DNA of 64,000 nt, taken from assembly GCA_050260175.1 (NCBI GenBank), contig JBLNBS010000042.1, positions 1,544-65,543 of the forward strand. The letters are read 5' to 3'. Origin of the DNA: Patescibacteria group bacterium (GTDB lineage: Bacteria > Bacillota > UBA4882 > JAAYXC01). The position numbers and the translations under genes are program-made. The notes beneath the pieces were generated by a model. It worked only from the letters and a program-made list of their open reading frames with translations. It searched no databases and was not told the origin of the DNA. Of this stretch, positions 2,493 through 54,966 are shown in pieces; within the stretch, counting starts at the first letter, position 1, and every line of letters begins with the position of its first letter.

Positions 2493-3050
2493 GTGCGTGC
2501 CATGCTGTTCATGCACAATGTGGGTGAACCGGTCGTCCAGCCGCTCACCGCACGGAACCTCCGGCAAGCGGCGGCACTCATGGTGCGATTGAGACCAGAC
2601 TGGTGGGACATGGAGGGAGCGCTCGGCCAACTCGATTCGGGAACAGGCTGGGCGCTCCTGAATAATGACGGCCGCGTGGCCGGCTGGTTGCTCGCCAATC
2701 TCTTTTCCGGCTACCGAACCCTGCAGATCGAATGCCTCGGTTATGACCAGGACGGGACCCTGGTCATCAACGAGCAACTCCGCCCCTTGCTGATCGCGAG
2801 CGAGGAATGGGCCAAGGGACAGGACTGCGTCAATATCAGGTTTATCAGCGGGTCCGCCGGCACCTCCTGCCACGGAATGGTCATCGAGAGGCCGTGGGAA
2901 GTGTTGAGGGATTTCGCTTCGCTGGAAAATGAGACGATCGAATGGTTCATGTCCATGGGTTACTTACCGTCAGGCCTCCTTCCGGACATCTATGGGCGGG
3001 GCTGCCACGGCATCATGCTGATCAAGCGGTTGTGGACCGGTCAGCGATGA
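2493..3050 (+). CDS. hypothetical protein (possibly acetyltransferase-like); lower-GC gene
   Basis: 185-aa ORF with protein-like composition in a ~58% GC patch. It is preferred over the overlapping 2244..2873 minus ORF, whose translation is low-complexity. Confidence 0.35.
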   Translation: MRAMLFMHNVGEPVVQPLTARNLRQAAALMVRLRPDWWDMEGALGQLDSGTGWALLNNDGRVAGWLLANLFSGYRTLQIECLGYDQDGTLVINEQLRPLLIASEEWAKGQDCVNIRFISGSAGTSCHGMVIERPWEVLRDFASLENETIEWFMSMGYLPSGLLPDIYGRGCHGIMLIKRLWTGQR

Positions 3051-3199
3051 TATACGTCCTGGAGTAACACAAGAGCGTGTGTCGACGATTGGGGCCTCCG
3101 AAGCCAAGGTACCGGTCTTGTCGAGGGGATTCTGGCAGATTTTGCCCCGAAAGGCTTCGCGTATTTGGCGATCTCAATGAAAAAGGAGGATGCCCGCAG

Positions 3200-3463
3200 A
3201 TGTCCAATGAGGAATTGACCGTGGCCCTGGAAAACGCCCAGCGTCAGATCGAATCCTTGCGGAACGAATTGGCTTCGTTCAAGCAGTCGGTCCGTGAGCA
3301 TAGGCACGAATACCATACCAATCTGATGAGCGATAAATTCCTTACCAGGGCCTTCGCGGTCTTGGGGCATTACATGGTGGCCGGTTTGATCGTTGCTGCG
3401 CCTTTCTACATCATTGCCATCATTATCGGCATAATCGCCGGCATTGCCGGCAGTATCCACTGA
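3200..3463 (+). CDS. small membrane protein (N-terminal coiled coil, C-terminal hydrophobic helix)
   Basis: ATG at 3200 is preceded by AAAAGGAGGA. The C-terminus AGLIVAAPFYIIAIIIGIIAGIAG is a clear transmembrane segment. The upstream part of ORF 3077 is probably untranslated. Confidence 0.4.
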   Translation: MSNEELTVALENAQRQIESLRNELASFKQSVREHRHEYHTNLMSDKFLTRAFAVLGHYMVAGLIVAAPFYIIAIIIGIIAGIAGSIH

Positions 3464-3477
3464 CAGCTTGCGGCGCC

Positions 3478-4053
3478 ATGAAAGAACCGGCACTGATCGA
3501 ACCAGCGGCGGAATACGAGGCGGAATACCTGGCGATGCTCGCGGAGTGGCGGGCCACGGGCGAGAAGCTCACTCCCTTCGTGCTCAAGATGGACCCGAGC
3601 GATTTCCCGGGTCTGGTGGCCAAACTCAAGCGCTACAGTAGGGGCGAGGGCATCCCCGCGTCGTTCGTCCCGCACGAGACCTATTGGCTGGTGGACGAGG
3701 ACCGCCGGATCCTGGGCGTGGTCAATATCCGGCCCCGGCTCAACGAGAGCTTGATGGTACGCGGCGGGCACATCGGCTACGGCGTGCGGCCGAGCGAGCG
3801 CGGCAAGGGCTGCGCCACGGAGATGCTCCGGCTGGCCCTGGAAAAGACGAAAGCCATGGGACTGGAGCGCGTATTGCTGACATGTGACAAGGAGAATACC
3901 GCCTCGGCGCGGGTGATCGTGAAGAACGGCGGCGTTCTGGAATCCGAGATCCACCTGGATGGCGCGATCGTCCAGAGGTACTGGATCGAGCTACATCCTC
4001 CCCGCGCCGCGGCCGAAAGGAAATCCATCGATGCAATCGTTCCTTCTGAATGA
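3478..4053 (+). CDS. GNAT family N-acetyltransferase
   Basis: GNAT core motif HIGYGVRPSERGKGCATEMLRLALEKTKAMGLERVLLTCDKENTASARVIVKNGG. Confidence 0.75.
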   Translation: MKEPALIEPAAEYEAEYLAMLAEWRATGEKLTPFVLKMDPSDFPGLVAKLKRYSRGEGIPASFVPHETYWLVDEDRRILGVVNIRPRLNESLMVRGGHIGYGVRPSERGKGCATEMLRLALEKTKAMGLERVLLTCDKENTASARVIVKNGGVLESEIHLDGAIVQRYWIELHPPRAAAERKSIDAIVPSE

Positions 4054-4816
4054 GTACGGTGCTTACCTATGTTATCACGACCTGCCCGGCGCCGAGCCGG
4101 CCCGGGTCTTCATCCACGGCCTCGGTTCGGCATCCTCCGCTGAGTTCGTCTGGACGGCCGCGCACCCGCTCTTGCGCGATAACCGTTCGATTCTCCTGGA
4201 TCTCCCGGGTTTCGGTTACAGCGACCGCCCGCGGCGTTTCGGTTATTCCTTGGAGGACCATGCGCTCTGCGCGGCCAGGCTCCTCGACCACCTGCAACTA
4301 AAGCGTTGCGACCTCATCGGGCACAGCATGGGCGGATCGGTGGCCATCACGCTGGCGGCCCTGCGGCCGGATCTCGTCGGCCGCTTAGTCGTGGCCGAGG
4401 GCAACCTGGATCCCGGGGGAGGGTCCGTCAGCACCCCCATCGCCCAGCAGCCCGGCTGGCTTTTCGCGCTGGCGGGACACCGCCTGATGCTGCGCCGGCT
4501 CAAAAAGGGCGCCTTCGAGGGGAGCGCGGGCGTTGTCTCATATCACGCCACCGTCCGGGCCTGCGCCTCCCGGTCGCTGCACCGCAGCGCCGTCGGCCTG
4601 GTGCGGGGAACGCGTCCCACCATGCGGGAAAGGTTCTTGAACTTAGACATCCCGCGGGCCTTCATCTTCGGCCAGCGTTCCCTGCCAGATCCGGACCTCG
4701 CGTTTCTTGAGCAGAGGGGTGTACGGGTCTTCGTCGTCCCTGACGCCGGGCACGCCATGATGGATGACAACCCGGAGGGCTTCGCAAGGGCGGTGGCTGA
4801 GGCGCTTGAAGGATGA
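4031..4816 (+). CDS. alpha/beta-fold hydrolase
   Basis: Nucleophile elbow GHSMGG and an HGLGSASS oxyanion region. ATG at 4031 (MQSFLLNEYG...) is the likely true start within ORF 3959..4816. Confidence 0.7.
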   Translation: MQSFLLNEYGAYLCYHDLPGAEPARVFIHGLGSASSAEFVWTAAHPLLRDNRSILLDLPGFGYSDRPRRFGYSLEDHALCAARLLDHLQLKRCDLIGHSMGGSVAITLAALRPDLVGRLVVAEGNLDPGGGSVSTPIAQQPGWLFALAGHRLMLRRLKKGAFEGSAGVVSYHATVRACASRSLHRSAVGLVRGTRPTMRERFLNLDIPRAFIFGQRSLPDPDLAFLEQRGVRVFVVPDAGHAMMDDNPEGFARAVAEALEG

Positions 4817-4902
4817 GGGAACAAAAGGGTAATAATCGCGCGCGGCGTACAAGGATGCGCCGAAGCCGCCTCTCTGCGGGATAATCTGTTTTTCACACCC
4901 CG

Positions 4903-6050: not shown

Positions 6051-6824
6051 CTATTCCCCCAGCCGGTCGCAGTAAACATGCATCGCCTCCCGCAGGAACG
6101 CGGCCAGGCCCGGTTTGACCTTGTCGATGTTCTCGGTGAAGCGGTGGTCGTTCACATACAAATCCCCGAGGCCGCGGAAGATCTCCGGCGTGCATGCGTA
6201 AAAACTATTTGTGATGTGTTCCCGCCACTCCGTCACCGCGGCCTGGACCTCCGGGTCCGCCGGCCCGCGCTCCATCGCGTCGGCGATGCGCCGGTAGATC
6301 TCGTTGCCCCGGGCGAGGATGGCCGCCCAGTCCTCCTTGGTGTACCTGGCGGTCTTGCGCTCGCACTCCGCCACGACCTTTGGATCGTACTTTTGCCGGA
6401 CCTCGTCGGCATATTTCGCTTGATGTTTCTCGATCTCCGCCATGTCAAAGCCCTCGAACATCTCTTTCTTTTCCATGCTGCGCCCCTCCTCCATCGCTTT
6501 CAGGGTCCTGTCCACGGTCCGGATGATCTCCTCGAGCCGCCTTTTCTTCTCCGTGAGCAGCTCCCTGTGGGCCCGCAAGGCGCGTCCCCGGTCAAAGTCC
6601 GGCCGGTCGAGGATCCCCCGGATTTCCTCGAGGTTGAAGCCGATCTCACGAAAGAAGAGGATCTGCTGCAGCCTCTGGAGGTCGCGGTCGGAGTACTGCC
6701 GGTACCCGGACGGGGTCACGGCCTCGGGCTTCAAGAGCCCGATCCGGTCGTAATGGTGCAGCGCGCGTACGCTGATCCCCGCCATGCCGGCCACTTCCTT
6801 TACCCAGTACGGCAATTCCGCCAC
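6051..6824 (-). CDS. MerR-family transcriptional regulator with TipAS/Mta-like effector domain
   Basis: N-terminal MerR HTH (GISVRALHHYDRIGLL), coiled-coil linker and a C-terminal TipAS-like domain. Confidence 0.8.
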   Translation of the reverse strand: MAELPYWVKEVAGMAGISVRALHHYDRIGLLKPEAVTPSGYRQYSDRDLQRLQQILFFREIGFNLEEIRGILDRPDFDRGRALRAHRELLTEKKRRLEEIIRTVDRTLKAMEEGRSMEKKEMFEGFDMAEIEKHQAKYADEVRQKYDPKVVAECERKTARYTKEDWAAILARGNEIYRRIADAMERGPADPEVQAAVTEWREHITNSFYACTPEIFRGLGDLYVNDHRFTENIDKVKPGLAAFLREAMHVYCDRLGE

Positions 6825-14020: not shown

Positions 14021-15391
14021 GTGGCCTGGGCACGGAAGGATACCTGGCGCAAGGAAGCCGCACTCGTCGAGCAGGTTCTCGAGGCGGCACCGCCCATAGA
14101 CCGCCATCTCCGCATCGGGAGGGAGGAATTCGAGGCGCGCCGGCGCAAGGTCGTCGCGGCGCTGGCCCGGCGGGGGCTGGACGCGGGCGTGGTGTATTGC
14201 GACGCGCATTACAACGGCGACGTGCCCTACCTCGGCGGCAACACCAACATCACCATCGAACCCGTGGCCGGTGTGGTCGGTCCCGGTGGATTCCACATCC
14301 TGGCCGGCCTCGAGGGCGGCTACGTGGTCGAGCAGCTTGCCAAGAGGTCCGGCGCGATCGTGCACAAGGTCGAGATGCTCAAACTCGCGGACGAGAACTA
14401 TCCCATCGAGGCTGAGCGGGTGGAGGACGTCATCGCCGCGGCGGCCGGCGGGCGCCCGTCGCGCATTGGCCTTCTTACCCCGCGGCAGGTGCTGCCGGCC
14501 AGTTTCTATCAGTTCCTGGCCGGCTATACGGGCTCTCCGGACGGCGCCGGGGTCATCGACGTCCAGGAGGATTACTACCGTATCAAATACCTCAAGTCAG
14601 ACGCGGAGATGCGCCTCATCGGCGAGGCCAGCAAGATCGCTGACGTGATGATCCGGGCCATGCTGGCGGTGCTCAAACCCGACATGCTCGAGACGGAGGT
14701 CGCCGCCTGGGGGTGTCTCGTGGCCAAGGAACTGGGCGCGGAGGAGATGGGCTGGGATGTGATGGTCACGGCCAACACGGCCAACCGCACCCTGATCGGC
14801 AAGGCGCTCAACCGGCCCATCAACCGGGGCGACATGGTGCATATCGGCGTCGCGCCCAAGTGCGACGGCCTCAATTCCTGCGAGCGCGTCTCCGTGGCCG
14901 CGGTGGCCGATCCCGCGGAGGTCACGCCCGCGCAGCGTTACTGGTTGGATTTCGTGGGCCGGGCCTTCGAGGCGGGCCTCGCGGCCTACCGCCGGGTGGC
15001 GGCCGAAAATCTCCCCGCCAGGCTGCAGGAGCAGGCACTGGTGGACTACTTTGCCGCCAGATCGGCCGAGGTCTCGGCCCGTGTGGGCCGCCCGGTGGAC
15101 ATGACCAGGCAAAAGCCGTATACGGGCACGCACAACGGCGGCTACACCGAGTGCCAGGAGTTCTACGGCGCCATCACGCTCGATTCGGAGGAGCCGCTCG
15201 GCGGGCAGATCGTCACCATGCTCGACGTGGCCGTGCGCGGGGTGGGCGACAGTTTTGACGACGTGATCATCCCGGATCTGGACTACGTCGTGGTCGAAAA
15301 GACCCTGGGCAAATACGGCCCCAGGGTGGAGGTGCTCAACAAGCTACCCGTGGACGTGCAGCACCTGGTGGGGCACGCCGGCGGGGTGTGA
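14021..15391 (+). CDS. creatinase/prolidase-like M24 family peptidase (paralog 1)
   Basis: Creatinase_N-like plus M24 'pita-bread' domains. About 65% identical to the paralog at 26056..27411. GTG at 14021 (RBS GGGGAGG) aligns with the N-terminus of paralog 2; ORF track gives 13913. Confidence 0.65.
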   Translation: MAWARKDTWRKEAALVEQVLEAAPPIDRHLRIGREEFEARRRKVVAALARRGLDAGVVYCDAHYNGDVPYLGGNTNITIEPVAGVVGPGGFHILAGLEGGYVVEQLAKRSGAIVHKVEMLKLADENYPIEAERVEDVIAAAAGGRPSRIGLLTPRQVLPASFYQFLAGYTGSPDGAGVIDVQEDYYRIKYLKSDAEMRLIGEASKIADVMIRAMLAVLKPDMLETEVAAWGCLVAKELGAEEMGWDVMVTANTANRTLIGKALNRPINRGDMVHIGVAPKCDGLNSCERVSVAAVADPAEVTPAQRYWLDFVGRAFEAGLAAYRRVAAENLPARLQEQALVDYFAARSAEVSARVGRPVDMTRQKPYTGTHNGGYTECQEFYGAITLDSEEPLGGQIVTMLDVAVRGVGDSFDDVIIPDLDYVVVEKTLGKYGPRVEVLNKLPVDVQHLVGHAGGV

Positions 15392-26055: not shown

Positions 26056-27411
26056 ATGTGGACACGGAACGTCCAATGGCGGCGTGAAGCCGACCTCGTG
26101 GCAAAGGTGCTCGAAAGGGCACCAGCGGTGGATCCGAAGAAATCTCTCGGGCTGGAGGAGTTCCGTGAGCGGCAGCGGAGGGTAATCGAGGCCATCCGTT
26201 CCGCCGGGTTGGATGCGGCGGTCGTATACTCGGACGAGCTTTACGATGGGGACGTCCCCTATCTGGCGGGGAACACCAATATCAGCATCGAGCCCGTCGC
26301 CGCCGTTATCGGCCCGAACGGGCTGCACGTCTTGGCCGGTTTGGAAGGCGGTTACGTGGTGGAACAACTGGCGGGCCGGTCGGGCGCAAAGGTTCACAAG
26401 GTCGAAATGCTAAAGCTGGCGGATGAGAACTACCCGATCAAGGCAGAGCGCGTCGAGGATGTCATTGAAGAAGCCGCCGGCAAGAAGCCCCTGAGAATAG
26501 GTCTCCTGACCCCGCGGCAGGTCCTGCCGGTCTCAATCCACGAGTTCCTCGCCTCTTATGTGGGTGATGCCGGGGAAATCGTCGACGCTCAGGAACTCTA
26601 TTATCGCATCAAATATGAAAAATCCGATCTGGAGATGGACCTCCTGGCGGACGCGGGCAAGATTGCCGACACAATGATGCGCGGGATGCTCGCGGTGCTC
26701 AAGCCCGGCATCCTCGAGACCCAGGTCGCGCAGTGGGGGTACGCCATCGCCCGGGAGATGGGCGCTGAAGAGATGGGTTTTGATGTCATGGTTACGGCCA
26801 ACGAGGCGAACAGAACCCTGATCGGTAAGGCGTTGAACCGCACGATTCACGAGGGCGACTGGGTTCACCTCGGCGTCGCCCCAAAGCGGGACGGGCTTAC
26901 CTCCTGCGTCCGGAGTTCGGTGGTGGCGGTGCCCGAACCAGGCGCGATGACGGCGGATCAGCGGTATTGGCTTAGCTTCGTGGAAGAAGCTTTTGAAGTT
27001 GGATTGTCCGCCTATCGCCGGGTTGCCGCCGAGGGTCTACCGGCCAAGCTCCAGGAAGAAGCATTGGTTGAATACTTCCGCTCCCGGTCCGACGAGGTGG
27101 GGAAGCGGATAGGCCGTCCGATCCGGCTGGAGGATCAAAAGCCTTATACCGGCACCCATAACGCCGGCTATACGGAATGCCAGGAGTTCTTCGGAGCCAT
27201 TACGCTCGATTCCGAGGAGCCCCTGGGCCGCCAAATCGTGACTATGCTCGATGTGGCGATCCGCGGGATCGGGGATGGTTGGCACGACGTGGTCATTCCC
27301 GGCCTGGACTACGTGGTCGTCGAGCGAACGCTCGGCAAATATGGCAGGGAGGTTCGGCTGCTCACCGAACTGCCCGTCAAGGTACAGGGCCTGGTGGGTA
27401 AGATCGAATGA
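26056..27411 (+). CDS. creatinase/prolidase-like M24 family peptidase (paralog 2)
   Basis: Collinear similarity to 14021..15391 (e.g. VVYSDELYDGDVPYLAGNTNISIEPVA vs VVYCDAHYNGDVPYLGGNTNITIEPVA). Confidence 0.65.
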   Translation: MWTRNVQWRREADLVAKVLERAPAVDPKKSLGLEEFRERQRRVIEAIRSAGLDAAVVYSDELYDGDVPYLAGNTNISIEPVAAVIGPNGLHVLAGLEGGYVVEQLAGRSGAKVHKVEMLKLADENYPIKAERVEDVIEEAAGKKPLRIGLLTPRQVLPVSIHEFLASYVGDAGEIVDAQELYYRIKYEKSDLEMDLLADAGKIADTMMRGMLAVLKPGILETQVAQWGYAIAREMGAEEMGFDVMVTANEANRTLIGKALNRTIHEGDWVHLGVAPKRDGLTSCVRSSVVAVPEPGAMTADQRYWLSFVEEAFEVGLSAYRRVAAEGLPAKLQEEALVEYFRSRSDEVGKRIGRPIRLEDQKPYTGTHNAGYTECQEFFGAITLDSEEPLGRQIVTMLDVAIRGIGDGWHDVVIPGLDYVVVERTLGKYGREVRLLTELPVKVQGLVGKIE

Positions 27412-37384: not shown

Positions 37385-37750
37385 TTTGCTTTTGATCCCC
37401 TTCCCAAACGACAGGAATGACATCGATCATTTTAACACATGCCCCGGACCGGCGCAAGGGCAAGACGGATCGCGGTTCGCCGCCGGGTCATGAAGGAAAA
37501 TGCCTCCTGCGCCACGAAGTCTCCCCGTCATCAAGCCGATAAATTATGCAGTGCGGATCGGTGAGGATCCAATCAGGGCGTCTAGCTCTGCCCACGATGG
37601 GCATAAAGCGAGCGACGTACATGGATGTACCAAAGCAGCTCAGCCGGGATTTCACGTACCACCAAAAAAGCAGGAATAATACCGTGATCCGAGAATAGTA
37701 ATGTGGTCTTCCCCGGTGGAGAAAAACTACCTCCCACAGGGGTGAATGGA

Positions 37751-43895: not shown

Positions 43896-44740
43896 TGCGG
43901 GTCACGCTGGCGCCCGGCGCCGGTTTCTGTTTCGGGGTCAGACGCGCGGTGGAACTGGCCGAAAAGACCGTGGCGCGCGCCGCGGGGCCGGTCGCCACCC
44001 TCGGCCCGCTCATCCACAACCCGACCGTGGTGCAGTCCCTGGCAAAAAGAGGGGTCAGGGCCGTGCGCACGCCGGAGGAGGCGGCCGGGGGAACGCTGAT
44101 CATCCGTTCGCACGGCGCCCCTCCGGAAGTTTTTGCGGCCGCGGCCCGGCTCGGGCTTACGGTGGTGGATGCCACCTGCCCCTTCGTCCGCAAGGCGCAG
44201 CGCTTGGCGCGCCGCCTGGCCGAAGGCGGCTACCAGGTGGTGATCGTGGGAGATCCCGAGCATCCAGAGATACAGGCTGTGGCGGCGGGCGCGGGGCCGG
44301 CGCTGGTGGCGGCCGATGCCGCCGATCTCCCCGCGTCGGATCTCAGGCCGAGGGTGGGCGTGGTCTGCCAGACCACCATGGCGCCGGAGCCCCTGGCGCG
44401 GGTGGCGGGAGCCCTTGCTCCGCGTTGCCGCGAGCTGGTGGTGCATAATACCATCTGCACGGCCACCTTTGACCGGCAGCGCGCTGCGGCCGAACTGGCA
44501 AAGAAGGTAGAGGTCATGGTCGTGGTGGGGGGCCGCGAGAGCGCCAACACAGCCCGCCTGGCCGGGATCTGCCGGGAGATCGTCCCGACATACCAGATCG
44601 AGGGACCGGAGGATCTTGACCCCGACTGGTTCAGGGGGGTCGGGGAAGTGGGCTTGGCCGCGGGCGCGTCCACGCCCGTTGAACAGATAGAGGCCACACG
44701 GAAGTATTTACAGGAGTTGACAGTGGAGGGAAGAGCATGA
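43895..44740 (+). CDS. ispH: 4-hydroxy-3-methylbut-2-enyl diphosphate reductase
   Basis: LytB/IspH family with conserved cysteines and HNP/SAN motifs. Found in the cmk-plsC-ispH-S1 arrangement common in Clostridia-like Firmicutes. Confidence 0.85.
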   Translation: MRVTLAPGAGFCFGVRRAVELAEKTVARAAGPVATLGPLIHNPTVVQSLAKRGVRAVRTPEEAAGGTLIIRSHGAPPEVFAAAARLGLTVVDATCPFVRKAQRLARRLAEGGYQVVIVGDPEHPEIQAVAAGAGPALVAADAADLPASDLRPRVGVVCQTTMAPEPLARVAGALAPRCRELVVHNTICTATFDRQRAAAELAKKVEVMVVVGGRESANTARLAGICREIVPTYQIEGPEDLDPDWFRGVGEVGLAAGASTPVEQIEATRKYLQELTVEGRA

Positions 44741-45963
44741 CGGACGAGAGGGACGATCTGGCGCTTGGGCCGCAAGCGGAGACCAAGGCGGATACCGGGG
44801 AAGAGGAGATGGATCTGTCCGCGCAGGAGATCAGGGACGGACTGCTCTCCGCGGCCAGGAGCTTTAGCGAGGGGGAGATCGTACCGGCCAGGGTGGTCCA
44901 GGTCCAGGACGACCTGGCCTTTGTGGATATCGGCGGGAAATCCGATCTGCCGATCCCCAGGGAGGAGCTGTCGCTGCAACCGGTCGCCTCGGCCAGGGAA
45001 GCGGTGGCCCCCGGGGACGAGATCCGGGTGATGGTGGTCAAGGCCGATGAGGACAAGGGGATCGAGCTCTCCAAGAAGCGCGCCGACCAGGAGGAACGCT
45101 GGCTCGCGCTGGAGAAGGCCCTCGCTGATGGCGGCGATGTCACCGGCCGCGTGACCGAGACCACCAAGGGCGGCCTGGTGGTGGATGTGGGCGTGCGGGG
45201 TTTCGTGCCCGCCTCCCAGGCCGCGCTGGGTTTCGTGCAGGATCTCGCGCCGATGGTGGGGGAGACCTGGGTGATGCGCCTCCTGGAGGTGGACCGGGCC
45301 GAGCGCCGGGTGGTGCTCTCGCGCCGGGCGATCCTCGCCGAGGAGCAGGCCAGGCGGGAGGCTGAGGCCTTCGCCAGGATCAAGGAGGGCGATGTCCTGC
45401 CCGGCCGCGTGGCGCGCCTGGCCGGTTTCGGGGCCTTCATCGATCTGGGCGGCGTGGAAGGCCTCCTCCATGTCTCGGAGATCGCCTGGGAACGGGTGAA
45501 CAACCCCGCCGACCGCCTGGCCGTGGGCGAGGAGCTCAAGGTCCAGGTCATCAAGGTCGATCCCGAGGCCAAGCGGATCTCCCTGAGCCTCAAGTCGCTG
45601 CAGCCCCACCCCTGGGCCGGCGTGGCCGACCGCTTTCCCGAAGGGTCGGTACACACCGGCAAGGTGGTGCGCATCGCCCCGTTCGGCGCCTTCGTGCGCC
45701 TGGCCGAGGGCATCGACGGCCTGGTCCATGTCTCGCAGATGGCCGAGAAACGCGTCAACCGGCCCGAGGATGTGGTCAGGACGGGCCAGGAGGTCGCCGT
45801 CAAGGTGCTCAAGGTGGACCAGGATCAGAAGAGGCTCAGCCTCTCCATGCGCGCCGTCTCCGAGGAGGCCGAAAAGGAGCAGGTCCAGTCCTACCTCAAC
45901 CGGCAGGACGAGACGGTCATCACCATCGGGGACCTGATCAGGGTCAAGAAGGAGAGGAAATGA
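44737..45963 (+). CDS. 30S ribosomal protein S1 homolog (four S1 domains)
   Basis: Repeated S1 RNA-binding domains (GxV...GFVP / GLLHVSE motifs). Confidence 0.8.
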   Translation: MTDERDDLALGPQAETKADTGEEEMDLSAQEIRDGLLSAARSFSEGEIVPARVVQVQDDLAFVDIGGKSDLPIPREELSLQPVASAREAVAPGDEIRVMVVKADEDKGIELSKKRADQEERWLALEKALADGGDVTGRVTETTKGGLVVDVGVRGFVPASQAALGFVQDLAPMVGETWVMRLLEVDRAERRVVLSRRAILAEEQARREAEAFARIKEGDVLPGRVARLAGFGAFIDLGGVEGLLHVSEIAWERVNNPADRLAVGEELKVQVIKVDPEAKRISLSLKSLQPHPWAGVADRFPEGSVHTGKVVRIAPFGAFVRLAEGIDGLVHVSQMAEKRVNRPEDVVRTGQEVAVKVLKVDQDQKRLSLSMRAVSEEAEKEQVQSYLNRQDETVITIGDLIRVKKERK

Positions 45964-46169
45964 CCTTCCTTCGCTGAGGCCAGGGAGGGTTATTGAACCT
46001 GACCCCCGGCGGCGATATGTTGATTACAGGGCTTTCGAAAGGTCTTTCAGGTGTAGCCCCGGGATTCATCTCCTACCCACGATGGGTAAAAGACTGCGAC
46101 GACCAAGGATGGTCCAAAGCAGCTCCCCGGGTTTAAAGAACGGGTTTTTCACACCGTTTTTAGATGTTG

Positions 46170-46198
46170 CGGCAGGCTATTAGCCTGCCGTGTTTTTC
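46170..46198 (+). terminator. rho-independent terminator
   Basis: GCGGCAGGC-TATTA-GCCTGCCG followed by TGTTTTT. Confidence 0.75.
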
Positions 46199-46402
46199 CA
46201 AGCATGGTCCGGACATACTTACCCAACCCTCCCCATGCTCCGGTCAAGTAATGATGAATTGAGAATTTAATTCTTTATTTTTCATTCTACATTCATCATT
46301 ATTTATCGCCGCAAGGCGTCCCCGCCCATCTCCTGCCATCTCTCCTCCCGCATACCCGCACCTCCCGCCGGCCATCCTAAGCCGGAAAGGTGGCGGGTTG
46401 CC

Positions 46403-47092
46403 TTGGCTCTCGGCCTGATCCTCCTCGCGGTCGTTTCCGTCCTGGTCCTTTTGGGCCTGGCCCACAGGGTGCTGGATCGGATGTACCTCTCGGACGGGGG
46501 GGCCCTGCTCTTCCTCGGCGGCATGATCGCGGGCAGCTTCATCGAGATCCCCCTCTTGCGCGGGCCGAATCCTGTTTCCATCAACGTCGGCGGGGCCATC
46601 CTCCCGGCGGGCCTGGCGGTGTATGTGCTGTCGCGGGCCGGCACGGCGTGGGAGAAATGGCGGGCCATTATCGCCGCCGTCGTGACAGCCGGGGCAGTCT
46701 ACGCGCTGGCGAAGTTCGTCAATTTTGGCGAAAAGCAGATGCCCCTCGATCCCCTCTACCTCTTTGCGATCCTGGCGGGGACCGTCGCCTATCTCGTCGG
46801 GCGGTCGCGCCGGACGGCCTTTATCTCCGCCACGCTGGGCCTGCTCCTCATGGATGTGGTCCATGTCTTCGAGGTGCGGGCCATGGGCACGCGGGCTGCC
46901 ACGCGGATCGGGGGAGCCGGGGCCTTTGACAGCATCATCCTGGCGGGATTGCTTGCCGTGGCGCTGACCGAGATCTTTGGCGAGACCAGGGAACGCCTGG
47001 GCGGCGGGCCGTACGACGCCGAACATAGGCCGGCGGGGCTGCGGCGGGAAGAGATCCTGGAACGCCTCGGCGACGACAGGGGAAAGAGGTGA
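46403..47092 (+). CDS. DUF1614-like integral membrane protein
   Basis: Multiple hydrophobic helices. TTG start with RBS GGAAAGGTGG. Confidence 0.5.
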   Translation: MALGLILLAVVSVLVLLGLAHRVLDRMYLSDGGALLFLGGMIAGSFIEIPLLRGPNPVSINVGGAILPAGLAVYVLSRAGTAWEKWRAIIAAVVTAGAVYALAKFVNFGEKQMPLDPLYLFAILAGTVAYLVGRSRRTAFISATLGLLLMDVVHVFEVRAMGTRAATRIGGAGAFDSIILAGLLAVALTEIFGETRERLGGGPYDAEHRPAGLRREEILERLGDDRGKR

Positions 47093-48249
47093 TCTCCATG
47101 CGCAGGGCTGTACTGTTCCTCGCCCTCCTCCTGGTCATTGCGGCCGTCACCCCGCCGGCGCTGGCCGAGGACGAACGGCGATCCGGGTACTTCACGCTCG
47201 TGGACATCGATACGGGCCGGGCCCTCTGCCGCACGGGGCACGTGGTCCGCGCAGGCGATCAATACATGACGGACGGCAACCTCCTCTACAGTGTCGTTCG
47301 CGTGCGCGGCGACAGTGCATACGCGCGGTTCGTGCGCCGGATCAACCTCGACCGCGCGCTGGCCAATGCCCGCCAGGGCTGGCTCGCCGGGATCTGGCGG
47401 GCGGCCGTCTCCTTCCTGGCCGGCGGTAGACCGACCGGCCCGGTGGCCATCTACCACACGCACGGCGACGAGTCGTACGTGCCCACGGACGGTACGGCGA
47501 GCAGGAAAGGGGAGGGCGGCATCTACCAGGTGGGGCGGTCGCTGGCGGCCCGGCTCCGCCGGCGGGGGCTGCCGGTCGAGCATTCCTACGCCAGCCATGA
47601 ACCGCATGACGGCATGGCTTACGAGCGTTCCCGGCGCACGGCCGCGTCGCTGTTGCGCAAGAACCCGGCGGCCCTCTTTGACATCCACCGCGACGCCGGC
47701 CCCCGTTCGGAGTATGCCTCGGTCGTGGACAACCAGGGCGTGACCAAGGTCCAGATCGTGCTCGGCCGCAGCAACCCGAACCTCAAGGCCAACGAGTCGT
47801 TCGCCTGGCGCCTCAAGTCGGTGGTGGACAAGAAGTACCCGGGGCTGATCAAGGGCATCTTTTACGGCTCGGGCAAGTACAATCAGGATCTCTCGCCCCG
47901 GGCGCTCCTTTTGGAACTGGGCACCGAGGCCAACAGCAAGCAGGCCGCGGAGCGGGGGGCCAGTATCTTCGGCGAGGCGGCCGTCAGCGTGATTGAGGCC
48001 GGGACGCGGGGCGGCGTCGCGGGCCGGTTCGGCGGCAACAGCGGCGCCTGGCGCGCGATTCTGTACGTCTTGGGCGGTGTGCTGGTCGTGGCCGTGTTCT
48101 TTCTCTTACTCAACGCCGGTTCGTTCAGAGGCGCCGCCAGTAATCTGGGCGGGTTCTTCCGGCGTGAATTCGCCAGCGCCATGGGCGACCGGAAACGCTC
48201 CAACCGGCGCAAGGAAGACAAGGGCGGCCGGCATCGAAACAGACGGTAA
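47089..48249 (+). CDS. spoIIP: stage II sporulation protein P (SpoIIP)
   Basis: N-terminal TM, IYHTHGDESY and DIHRDAG motifs characteristic of the SpoIIP amidase/peptidase family, and a basic tail. Confidence 0.75.
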   Translation: MISMRRAVLFLALLLVIAAVTPPALAEDERRSGYFTLVDIDTGRALCRTGHVVRAGDQYMTDGNLLYSVVRVRGDSAYARFVRRINLDRALANARQGWLAGIWRAAVSFLAGGRPTGPVAIYHTHGDESYVPTDGTASRKGEGGIYQVGRSLAARLRRRGLPVEHSYASHEPHDGMAYERSRRTAASLLRKNPAALFDIHRDAGPRSEYASVVDNQGVTKVQIVLGRSNPNLKANESFAWRLKSVVDKKYPGLIKGIFYGSGKYNQDLSPRALLLELGTEANSKQAAERGASIFGEAAVSVIEAGTRGGVAGRFGGNSGAWRAILYVLGGVLVVAVFFLLLNAGSFRGAASNLGGFFRREFASAMGDRKRSNRRKEDKGGRHRNRR

Positions 48250-53551: not shown

Positions 53552-53935
53552 TTAATTCATCATTCTACATTCATCATTCATCATTGCTCTTAGCAGCAGT
53601 CTCATCCCATCCAAAAAAGCCCTCTCCCCGAGCATCGCCGTCTCCAGGTAATGCGCCGATCCCAGGGCCTCGCTGTATTGGAGGAGCATCCTTTGGCCCT
53701 CCTCGGGCAGCATCTCCCGCAATTGCGCGTAGAGGCGGGAGGCCTTTTCCTGCTGCACATGGTACTCCTTCGGCGCTTGGCTCGTATCAACTCGGTCCAA
53801 GCGGGAGCAGATGAATTCCCTGAGATCGACCATGAAGTCGTCGTCGAAATAGGAACGGTCGCGGGCGAGGAGGGGGGAACGGGATGCGGGGGAAACCGGT
53901 AATTGGTAGAGCACGGTGATCGCGCCCTCTCTCAT
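53552..53935 (-). CDS. hypothetical protein
   Basis: 127-aa ORF with balanced composition. Its 3' end overlaps AT-rich repeat copy 2. Confidence 0.35.
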   Translation of the reverse strand: MREGAITVLYQLPVSPASRSPLLARDRSYFDDDFMVDLREFICSRLDRVDTSQAPKEYHVQQEKASRLYAQLREMLPEEGQRMLLQYSEALGSAHYLETAMLGERAFLDGMRLLLRAMMNDECRMMN

Positions 53936-54221: not shown

Positions 54222-54966
54222 CAGAGCCCATCTCGAGGATATTTTTTGTACTAACCAGCGAGGAAGTCTTGGTCACGTTACTCATTCTGCATTCTTCATT
54301 TATCATTGCCTTCATCCCGTGAACCGTTTGGCCAGGGAGCATCTTGAGTCCCGCGGCCTTTTGCGCAAGTGGGAACCGAGATCGTAAGCAAATGAGGCCA
54401 ATCGCTTCCAGCCACTCTTTATGTAAGAGAGCGGTGGTATCTCAACGCCAGGATGAGCGGCTGACTCGCGATCCGCCGACTCGTGACCAGCTTTTTTTCG
54501 GGCCGTCATTCTTTGACGGTCTCGTTTGTTACTCTTGACATATGGCGGGAGATTGGCAGGAATCGGGGAGCGGGTGGGCGAATTTTTGGATAGTGATGGC
54601 AATCACATTGGGGCGCCTGAGGCAGCGGTTTCCGTGGCTGGTGAATGTCCGGATGCGAGTGGTGGTGGAATAACGCCTACCGAGGACGCATTGATCGCGT
54701 TGCGCCGTATTCCGGCAGTTAATACTGATGATATTGAGTATTTAGCGAACCCAGCTCTACGCATGACCGATGGTCAAGTAATGGGTGAAGGTCATTTGCA
54801 CATAATACTAAAGACATAGGGTTTCATTCCTCTTCAAAATAGTTGGATAAAGTAAATAGGAAGAAGGTCGGCGGGTTCTGAAGAGGGTTTTAGCATATGT
54901 GGCGAAAATTTAAATACAGTTTATCTTTATCATGTAGAGTATAATCACTGAAGGCGAGGATGACCT

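Follow-up and report, generated by a model that had tools for sequence, protein, structure and literature searches.

A dispersed two-hairpin repeat akin to TwoAYGGAY and Bacillaceae-1, with a copy in the 3' untranslated region of an S1-domain protein gene from an uncultured spore-forming Bacillota lineage

The TwoAYGGAY class (RF01731; PMC2864571) consists of a simple hairpin followed by a second arm, in which a stem and an internal loop lead to a 4-bp stem bearing a hexaloop closed by a C-G pair, with both arms held in a basal stem. Its Psychromonas example reads AAAC-AUGGAU-GUUU and then AGUUCGG-CUCU-GCAC-AUGGAU-GUGC-UGU-CCGGACU (Weinberg et al. 2010, PMC2864571). Bacillaceae-1 (RF01690) has the same order of elements when its reverse complement is read: a hairpin with an AGGAY-type loop, a 3-4-nucleotide (nt) linker, a 6-7-bp stem, a 3-nt loop, an AGGAC/AGGAU hairpin and a 4-7-nt loop. 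Here, we describe a family with this architecture, in the same orientation as TwoAYGGAY, found as two copies (A and B) in a 64,000-nt stretch of contig JBLNBS010000042.1 (positions 1,544 to 65,543, forward strand; hereafter referred to as the window). Judged from its sequence, copy B, which lies downstream of the gene for an S1-domain ribosomal protein (hereafter S1), probably belongs to a dispersed family of two-hairpin repeats with mobile-element-like behaviour, and the class that it most resembles is TwoAYGGAY.

Comparison with described RNA and repeat families

The initial annotation of the window had proposed a structured core in two copies. Both were recovered with a covariance model (R1, described below), and copy B was resolved into the following parts:

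46073-46130, plus strand: core of copy B (R1, 74 bits, E about 5e-16)
46058-46063, plus strand: 5' arm (CCCGGG) of the basal stem P1, pairing with 46126-46131 in the minimum-free-energy fold
46126-46131, plus strand: 3' arm (CCCGGG) of P1, from the fold
46075-46087, plus strand: hairpin 1, ACCC-ACGAU-GGGU, or 5 bp with a CGA loop, from the fold
46092-46124, plus strand: composite arm made up of P3 (GACUGC/GCAGCU), the internal loop GAC/CAAA and hairpin 2, from folds
46101-46114, plus strand: hairpin 2, GACC-AAGGAU-GGUC, from the fold

The fold of copy B reproduced the TwoAYGGAY arrangement of two hairpins on a basal stem, and covariation backed hairpin 1, P3 and hairpin 2. The GCAC-AUGGAU-GUGC hairpin of TwoAYGGAY is comparable to GUAC-AUGGAU-GUAC in copy A and to GCAC-AUGGAG-GUGC in another locus (L015). 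The basal stem of TwoAYGGAY ranges from tiny to more than 20 bp, and that of the present family is likewise variable (in locus L020 it is a 20-nt inverted repeat). The two also share their behaviour: both are multi-copy, intergenic and repeat-associated, and occur in doublets or arrays a few hundred bases apart. According to a 2026 preprint (10.64898/2026.09.22.753630), TwoAYGGAY has a median of 11-23 copies per Pseudomonas genome, with up to 202, its doublets are enriched at a spacing of about 249 bp, and its expansion is repeat-associated and mobile-element-like, with the link between mobility and regulation left open by that source.

There were also clear differences. Both loops are AYGGAY in TwoAYGGAY, whereas a strict AYGGAY was found in hairpin 2 of only 6/23 distinct copies here (ACGGAU in four, AUGGAU in two). 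Hairpin 1 most often had a 5-nt ACGAU loop without GGA (13/23), and the internal loop was GAC/CAAA (3x4), as opposed to CUCU/UGU. The host, unlike those of TwoAYGGAY, belongs to an uncultured lineage of spore-forming Bacillota, and the nested insertion and unit-sized insertions or deletions described below are not reported in the TwoAYGGAY sources consulted.

Rfam was searched at the gathering score (window and eight loci) and at E<=10 (copy B region, 96-nt copy B core, and the arrays in loci L024 and L023). No Rfam family matched copy A or B at either level, and RF01731 gave no match to any of these sequences; the other matches (sR6, miRNA families, RsmY) were noise. Bacillaceae-1 gave its best scores on the strand opposite to R1, with 25.5 bits (E=0.029) at L024 617-675 and 20.5 bits at L023 2752-2810, and did not reach its gathering score of 35. 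Only variants with AGGAU in both loops touch RF01690, for which Rfam annotates the opposite strand as the RNA. Like the present family, Bacillaceae-1 is multi-copy (eight copies in B. subtilis) and occurs in numerous gene contexts, sometimes beside ribosomal RNA (rRNA) operons; mobility, in contrast, is not described for it in the sources consulted. We conclude that the family is a new variant akin to TwoAYGGAY and Bacillaceae-1 that belongs to neither Rfam family, because RF01731 does not match, RF01690 matches only some variants and below threshold, hairpin 1 mostly lacks GGA and the internal loop differs.

The orientation used by Rfam for Bacillaceae-1 raises the question of whether the functional strand is the opposite one, on which hairpin 2 has an AUCC(N)U loop in most copies and hairpin 1 mostly AUCGU, with AUCCU/UUCCU in 8/23 (RUCCU in both loops of Bacillaceae-1). 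Such pyrimidine-rich, anti-Shine-Dalgarno-like loops might base-pair with ribosome-binding sites or serve as the binding site of a homodimeric protein. This possibility draws on the weak matches to the reverse complement of the double-AGGAU variants, on the frequent adjacency of Bacillaceae-1 to rRNA operons and its RUCCU loops (Weinberg et al., PMC2864571), and on a copy in locus L029, within a 23S rRNA gene, in which this strand is the transcribed one. However, both matches are below the gathering score and neither copy A nor copy B gave one, the opposite strand at copy B is antisense to the S1 3' untranslated region (UTR) with no visible promoter or terminator, and the wobble counts lean slightly towards the plus strand (G.U 10 versus A.C 5, several of them being artefacts of alignment register). 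We consider a functional opposite strand highly improbable.

Short structured intergenic repeats of the REP/BIME/REPIN and miniature inverted-repeat (MITE; Correia, ERIC, BOX) types are also present in many copies and both orientations, form mosaic arrays, occur in 3' UTRs and break assemblies. Their hairpin arms covary, as it is structure and not sequence that is recognised. The present family resembles these repeats in having carriers with terminal inverted repeats (L020 and L021), but its unit is a two-hairpin junction with conserved loops, rather than a single imperfect palindrome or a long inverted-repeat pair, and its conserved part is an internal core, rather than the termini. As regards REP systems, no RAYT or other transposase gene turned up near the copies in the fetched loci, among which no dedicated RAYT search was made.

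Structure and distribution of the repeat family

The pattern CCCACGATGGG-N6-13-GCGAC-N10-20-CAAAGC was scanned in one genome per species (185,579 species). Fifteen matches, on 13 contigs, came from one metagenome-assembled genome (MAG; JBLNCE01, labelled 'Bacteroidota bacterium MAG133', hereafter referred to as MAG133), and many of them lay 50-400 nt from a contig end, which is the signature of an assembly-breaking repeat. The remaining matches had neither hairpin 2 nor P3 and were chance-like. The same pattern identified three further real single copies in unrelated metagenome contigs (L029, L036 and L044). A phage or plasmid origin was rejected, as viral contigs yielded only a chance match to the pattern and a blastn search in distant mode with 46026-46200 gave no match among 50,697 phage records and 72,556 plasmid records.

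The R1 covariance model was built from a MAFFT alignment (A2) of 14 distinct copies that came from several genomes. This alignment supported three helices, with 89.7% of the cells paired, versus 21-40% in slid controls. Both sides changed in 9/16 pairs, including four in P3 and three in hairpin 2, and none of 500 shuffles reached the observed values; the outer pair of hairpin 1 covaried between GC, AU and CG. The element is thus conserved and structured beyond chance, as the initial annotation had it. A double-stranded DNA operator for a transcription factor was rejected, because the stem arms change identity yet stay complementary. We infer that the hairpins are kept through recognition in single-stranded form, either by an enzyme that moves the unit or by an RNA-binding protein of the CsrA/Rsm type.

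In the fetched MAG133 loci, R1 found 27 copies, on both strands, in arrays with a spacing of about 200-290 nt and as adjacent inverted pairs. All copies were intergenic and their orientation with respect to neighbouring genes was mixed; the ratio obtained by eye with a crude gene call based on third-codon-position GC content (roughly 7 co-oriented, 4 opposed) is uninformative. The unit spans about 51-58 nt: first a hairpin whose loop is ACGAU or AGGAU, then a stem, the internal loop GAC/CAAA and a second hairpin, with A(N)GGAX as its loop. Most copies have a conserved CUC 2-3 nt 5' of hairpin 1. The basal stem often encloses both hairpins: P1 was seen in copy B, in L021 (CCCGGGG/CCCCGGG at the equivalent place) and in L020, and was variable elsewhere. 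An A(N)GGAX loop with C-G closure was present in hairpin 2 of 20/23 distinct copies (AGGAU, ACGGAU, AUGGAG, AAGGAU, AUGGAU or ACGGAA), including AAGGAU in copy B, AUGGAU in copy A and ACGGAU in L029. The loop of hairpin 1 was ACGAU in the 13/23 copies mentioned above and AGGAU or AGGAA in 8/23.

Besides copy B, the window contains the following members of the family, the last of which is additional to the two of the initial annotation:

37588-37646, plus strand: copy A, a solo core (R1, 67.5 bits) in the divergent spacer between rpmB (minus strand) and asp23 (plus strand)
37590-37602, plus strand: hairpin 1 of copy A
37617-37630, plus strand: hairpin 2 of copy A, GUAC-AUGGAU-GUAC
4829-4899, plus strand: possible degenerate third copy, on weak evidence (R1, 12.3 bits, E=0.25, match 4829-4876)

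Copies A and B were aligned over 64 nt with 78% identity (blastn within the window, E=3e-7). The nearest relatives of copy A were two tandem copies in L015 (88-90% identity over 58 nt, blastn). The spacer of copy A has one promoter-like site, at 37651-37680, and no terminator accompanies this copy. The third copy has P3 and a part resembling hairpin 2 with an AAGGAU loop, lacks hairpin 1, and is followed by TGTTTTTCACACC, a module that also follows copy B (13-mer match with one mismatch). In copy B, P3 is weakened, its outer pairs being A.C and G.U; in the L021 copy both of these pairs are G-C and P3 is a perfect 6 bp. Copies A and B look like slightly decayed insertions: copy B because the outer P3 pairs are disrupted and its carrier lacks the left arm, and copy A because of an irregular P3 register. 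In the same window, 14115-15372 and 26147-27398 (about 1.26 kb each) have 70% DNA identity and are probably paralogous genes.

Carriers, unit-sized differences and orthologous sites

The surroundings of copy B contain the following features:

46026-46157, plus strand: B-type repeat segment of 132 nt, matching L021 6224-6354 in another gene context (blastn)
46139-46158, plus strand: small hairpin, AACGG...CCGTT, from the sequence
46143-46166, plus strand: right arm of the carrier's inverted repeat, GGTTTTTCACACCGTTTTTAGATG, identical to the reverse complement of L021 6083-6106
46168-46197, plus strand: intrinsic terminator, an 11-bp stem (46168-46192) followed by TTTTT, from a terminator scan and the fold
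44737-45963, plus strand: S1 gene, 408 aa (Pfam S1 domain, E=2.3e-68)
46403-47092, plus strand: DUF1614 gene (Pfam)
47089-48249, plus strand: SpoIIP gene (Pfam)

The segment 46026-46157 was 91.6% identical to L021 6224-6354 over 131 nt (blastn), and the similarity ended sharply on both sides in a pairwise alignment (A4). In L021, the segment is not beside S1; it lies between a gene for a 308-aa protein and a D-alanyl-D-alanine carboxypeptidase-like gene (read from its translation, without a domain search), in an element of about 260 nt with a perfect 14-nt inverted repeat (6093-6106 / 6340-6353). The carrier is bounded by inverted repeats, and the window has its right-hand part only: the left arm is absent from the window, and the only other near match to the right arm is at 4887-4899. 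The small hairpin seen in the initial annotation is indeed present; it is not a conserved hairpin, being part of the right arm of the carrier. The commonest MAG133 subfamily lies towards the right end of composite elements that measure 650-975 nt and contain up to five cores, and these composite carriers have a perfect 23-nt terminal inverted repeat (L020 7159-7813). Terminal inverted repeats of the MITE type were therefore present in two carriers, L020 and L021, with the right arm only at copy B and no arms at copy A. No clear target-site duplication was found at the ends of the L020 carrier. This locus also contains an unrelated cobalamin riboswitch (4184-4376, 99.5 bits).

The core itself was found to differ between loci as a discrete unit, present or absent in clean blocks of about 51-54 nt. 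At L023 2467-2578, a 53-nt unit in the opposite orientation is lodged in another copy, whose hairpin 2 loop it splits precisely between AUGG and AGGGUC. In a further alignment (A5), L020 lacked a 52-nt unit and a two-unit doublet found at the same positions in L024, L023 and L013, with the flanks otherwise collinear. The boundaries of these differences coincided every time with those of the unit, from the conserved CUC 5' of hairpin 1 to the 3' end of P3. By analogy with these units, the minimal unit of copy B is probably about 46070-46124 (CTCCTA...GCAGCT). Another filled site, around L024 330-348, is located immediately 3' of a hairpin that reads CGGAU on its opposite strand. The nesting in L023 and this site in L024 hint at a target preference for GGA-type hairpins.

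A copy was also found within an rRNA gene. The 23S rRNA gene of L029 (184-3834, minus strand) has a large-subunit rRNA match in Rfam spanning 3651 nt, versus 2925 for the model, and is thus about 700 nt longer. It has an insertion of about 270 nt, around 2950-3215, with the complementary ends CCGCTCAGTTAAATGCA and TGCATTTAACTGAGCG, which holds a copy of the repeat antisense to the rRNA. Relative to the E. coli sequence, we take the site to be the helix-25 region. By its sequence, the insertion looks like an intervening sequence derived from a mobile repeat.

Orthologous regions of relatives were retrieved through their Asp23 and S1 proteins. Two relatives (L046 and L048) keep the order S1, DUF1614, SpoIIP, with S1 proteins 73-75% identical to that of the window, and have a GC-rich hairpin followed by a T run, that is, an intrinsic terminator, directly after the S1 stop codon. 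R1 found no match in their S1-DUF1614 regions, even with filters off. As the terminator follows the S1 stop codon in the absence of the element, the terminator of the window (46168-46197) belongs to the S1 unit; copy B is therefore within the S1 3' UTR, between the S1 stop codon and the terminator of S1 itself. The intrinsic terminator that the initial annotation placed after copy B is thus real and has another owner. At the site of copy A, no copy was detected by blastn or R1 in the rpmB-asp23 spacers of six relatives (L001-L008; Asp23 74-84% identical), which hold a DUF1858 gene of 68-81 aa where the window has copy A (37424-37702). The possibility that copy A is a DUF1858 pseudogene was rejected, because tblastn of three DUF1858 proteins against the window gave no match. 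The comparison with orthologous intergenic regions proposed in the initial annotation thus revealed that the element is not conserved at either site.

Within the S1-DUF1614 spacer of L046, a distant relative, positions 3740-3762 (...CAACTTATACGAC) resemble the terminal inverted repeat of the MAG133 composite carriers, AAGCTTATACGAC, and may be a relic of a carrier end. The S1 protein of the window is 100% identical to P0121 of a public MAG. The MAGs with P0121 and P0013/P0125, and JBLNCE01, are labelled 'Patescibacteria group bacterium' or 'Bacteroidota bacterium', yet encode SpoIIP, YunB and DUF1614 and have a Bacillota-type gene order; these taxonomic labels look wrong.

In the scenario that we propose, copy B would have arrived on a 132-nt fragment of an inverted-repeat-bounded carrier, which would have been inserted between the stop codon of S1 and the intrinsic terminator of that gene. 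Copy B would then be transcribed as part of the S1 3' UTR, ending at the S1 terminator, with no control of DUF1614-spoIIP. The initial annotation had instead suggested a terminator-type riboswitch, or cis-regulatory leader, for the DUF1614-spoIIP operon, given the presence of a structured element and a terminator upstream of an operon on the same strand. This suggestion is effectively refuted: L046 and L048 keep the terminator and the operon without the element, and about 205 nt, including an AT-rich island, separate the terminator from the DUF1614 start codon (46403). In addition, the only segment found to complement the terminator's 5' arm (GCGGCAGGC) was its own 3' arm, leaving no antiterminator; the core recurs in many unrelated surroundings and in different orientations, even inside an rRNA gene; the 132-nt segment has another gene context in L021; and no Rfam riboswitch matched.

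The spacer upstream of DUF1614 has two features of its own. An AT-rich motif, CATTCT(A/G)CATTC(A/T)TCATT, occurs at three intergenic places in the window (46240-46305, 53557-53585 and 54282-54308, plus strand), the first of which is upstream of DUF1614/spoIIP, in an AT-rich island of about 65 nt with the inverted repeat AATGATGAAT...ATTCATCATT; this motif may be a shared promoter or operator, perhaps a sporulation-specific one. The sequence GGCCATCCTA(A/G)(G/T)C-GG-(A)AAGGTGG ahead of the DUF1614 start is kept in the window (46371-46395), L046 (3876-3900) and L048 (3773-3800), and could be a ribosome-binding region with a possible hairpin masking the Shine-Dalgarno sequence.

Several observations weigh against a mobile repeat. 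The window has only two good copies in 64 kb, and no transposase or other mobilising gene was found beside any copy in the fetched loci. The unit-sized differences could be precise deletions, one of them being flanked by an 8-9-nt direct repeat, GCAGC(C)TCT. Among relatives that share the gene order, even the closest are distant (S1 73-75% identical), so the empty sites are not recent. Finally, loop sequence and structure are conserved from one carrier, genome and subfamily to another, which suggests that the element does more than spread selfishly. A TnpB/IscB guide RNA, an IS110 bridge RNA and a group II intron end, ideas that had come from the fixed distance between subfamily 1 cores and a repeat end, were all dropped, because no large open reading frame was present in or beside the repeats.

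Transcription and possible functions of the repeat

Copy B is certainly transcribed on the plus strand, being upstream of the S1 terminator. A promoter scan of 45900-46450 detected no sigma-70-like promoter, and no promoter-like site precedes copy B; the best candidate by eye, TTGAAC-17-TATGTT (45993-46021), matches at only 8/12 positions. The RNA 46055-46200 had a folding energy of -59.1 kcal/mol, versus -40 +/- 3.7 in shuffles (z=-5.1, with 0/200 shuffles as stable), but much of this z-score is supplied by the terminator, the core by itself (46060-46140) having a z of -1.9.

The 3' UTRs of mRNAs are a known source of small RNAs, and copy B might be a discrete trans-acting small RNA of about 120-170 nt (46026/46057 to 46197), either transcribed from its own promoter or processed from the S1 3' UTR. 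The strong terminator immediately downstream and the well-folded region would fit such an RNA, as would the judgement of Weinberg et al. (2010, PMC2864571) that Bacillaceae-1 and TwoAYGGAY are trans-acting or non-cis-regulatory RNAs. However, the promoter scan was negative, the terminator is accounted for by the S1 gene, and copy A and most members of the family have no terminator; a discrete small RNA is therefore unlikely.

The most attractive functional reading, which we put forward tentatively, as possible rather than probable, is that transcribed copies are bound by a protein of the CsrA/Rsm type, which would be compatible with mobility. On the plus strand, each unit has one or two A(N)GGAX loops on stems closed by C-G; with about 27 nt between them, such loops could hold a CsrA dimer in a clamp. 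Arrays would be multivalent sponges, and copy B would recruit or titrate CsrA on the 3' UTR of the S1 mRNA. An ANGGAX hexaloop set directly on a stem is a high-affinity CsrA/RsmE site, A-GGA-X without N being weaker (Duss et al. 2014, PMC4005645), and the AAGGAU, AUGGAU and ACGGAU loops of copies B, A and L029 resemble this rule in sequence (PMC4005645). The loop census is favourable, with A(N)GGAX and C-G closure at hairpin 2 in 20/23 copies and AGGAU/AGGAA at hairpin 1 in 8/23, and copy B is transcribed on the strand with the GGA loop. In both related families, TwoAYGGAY and the reverse complement of Bacillaceae-1, the CsrA motif was strongly matched according to Gardner and Eldai (2015, PMC4333381), who proposed that both bind CsrA, without validation; the sponge idea for TwoAYGGAY is repeated in the 2026 preprint (10.64898/2026.09.22.753630).

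Other observations argue against CsrA binding. Most copies, including A and B, have an ACGAU hairpin 1 without GGA, and most have one GGA loop only. Copies face either way with respect to flanking genes, the one in L029 runs antisense to the 23S rRNA transcript of its host gene, and copy A is upstream of both likely promoters of its spacer (from a reading of the sequence and the promoter-like site at 37651-37680). A tblastn search with the CsrA sequences of E. coli and B. subtilis found no csrA gene in either the fetched loci or the 64-kb window, a result that says nothing about the whole genome, and a literature search for CsrA together with MITEs gave nothing useful.

The sponge RNAs CsrB, RsmY and RsmZ resemble the family in having repeated A(N)GGAX hairpin loops, paired so as to suit a dimeric protein. 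Unlike them, the units described here have no promoter and terminator of their own, are dispersed and repeat-like, and have no significant Rfam match, the RsmY-like match in an array being weak (12.3 bits, E=2.6). Such sponge RNAs are known only in Gammaproteobacteria (PMC4333381); in Bacillus subtilis, CsrA is antagonised by the protein FliW instead of a sponge RNA.

Returning to the mobile, selfish repeat with hairpins recognised in single-stranded form, which we consider the probable nature of copy B, the findings remove a false riboswitch lead: DUF1614-spoIIP has no conserved structured leader here, and the terminator simply closes the S1 unit. They add a lineage like TwoAYGGAY and Bacillaceae-1, undetected by Rfam, in uncultured spore-forming Bacillota, and provide sequence-level evidence for a core of about 53 nt as a discrete unit of insertion or deletion, in the form of one nested copy and three clean unit-sized differences. 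A bolder and decidedly unlikely extension is that the two-hairpin unit, at about 53 nt, is a minute mobile module in its own right, which would insert at or in the loops of GGA-type hairpins, including those of its own relatives, and display CsrA/Rsm-type loops once transcribed. If this were true, the module would scatter binding sites for a regulator, or sponge arrays, over the transcriptome of a Bacillota lineage, linking mobility and regulation, and Bacillota would gain an RNA antagonist of CsrA alongside FliW. The nature of the class, whether selfish DNA, a CsrA sponge or both, is a question that should be easier to test with a compact family for which units, carriers and empty sites are defined.

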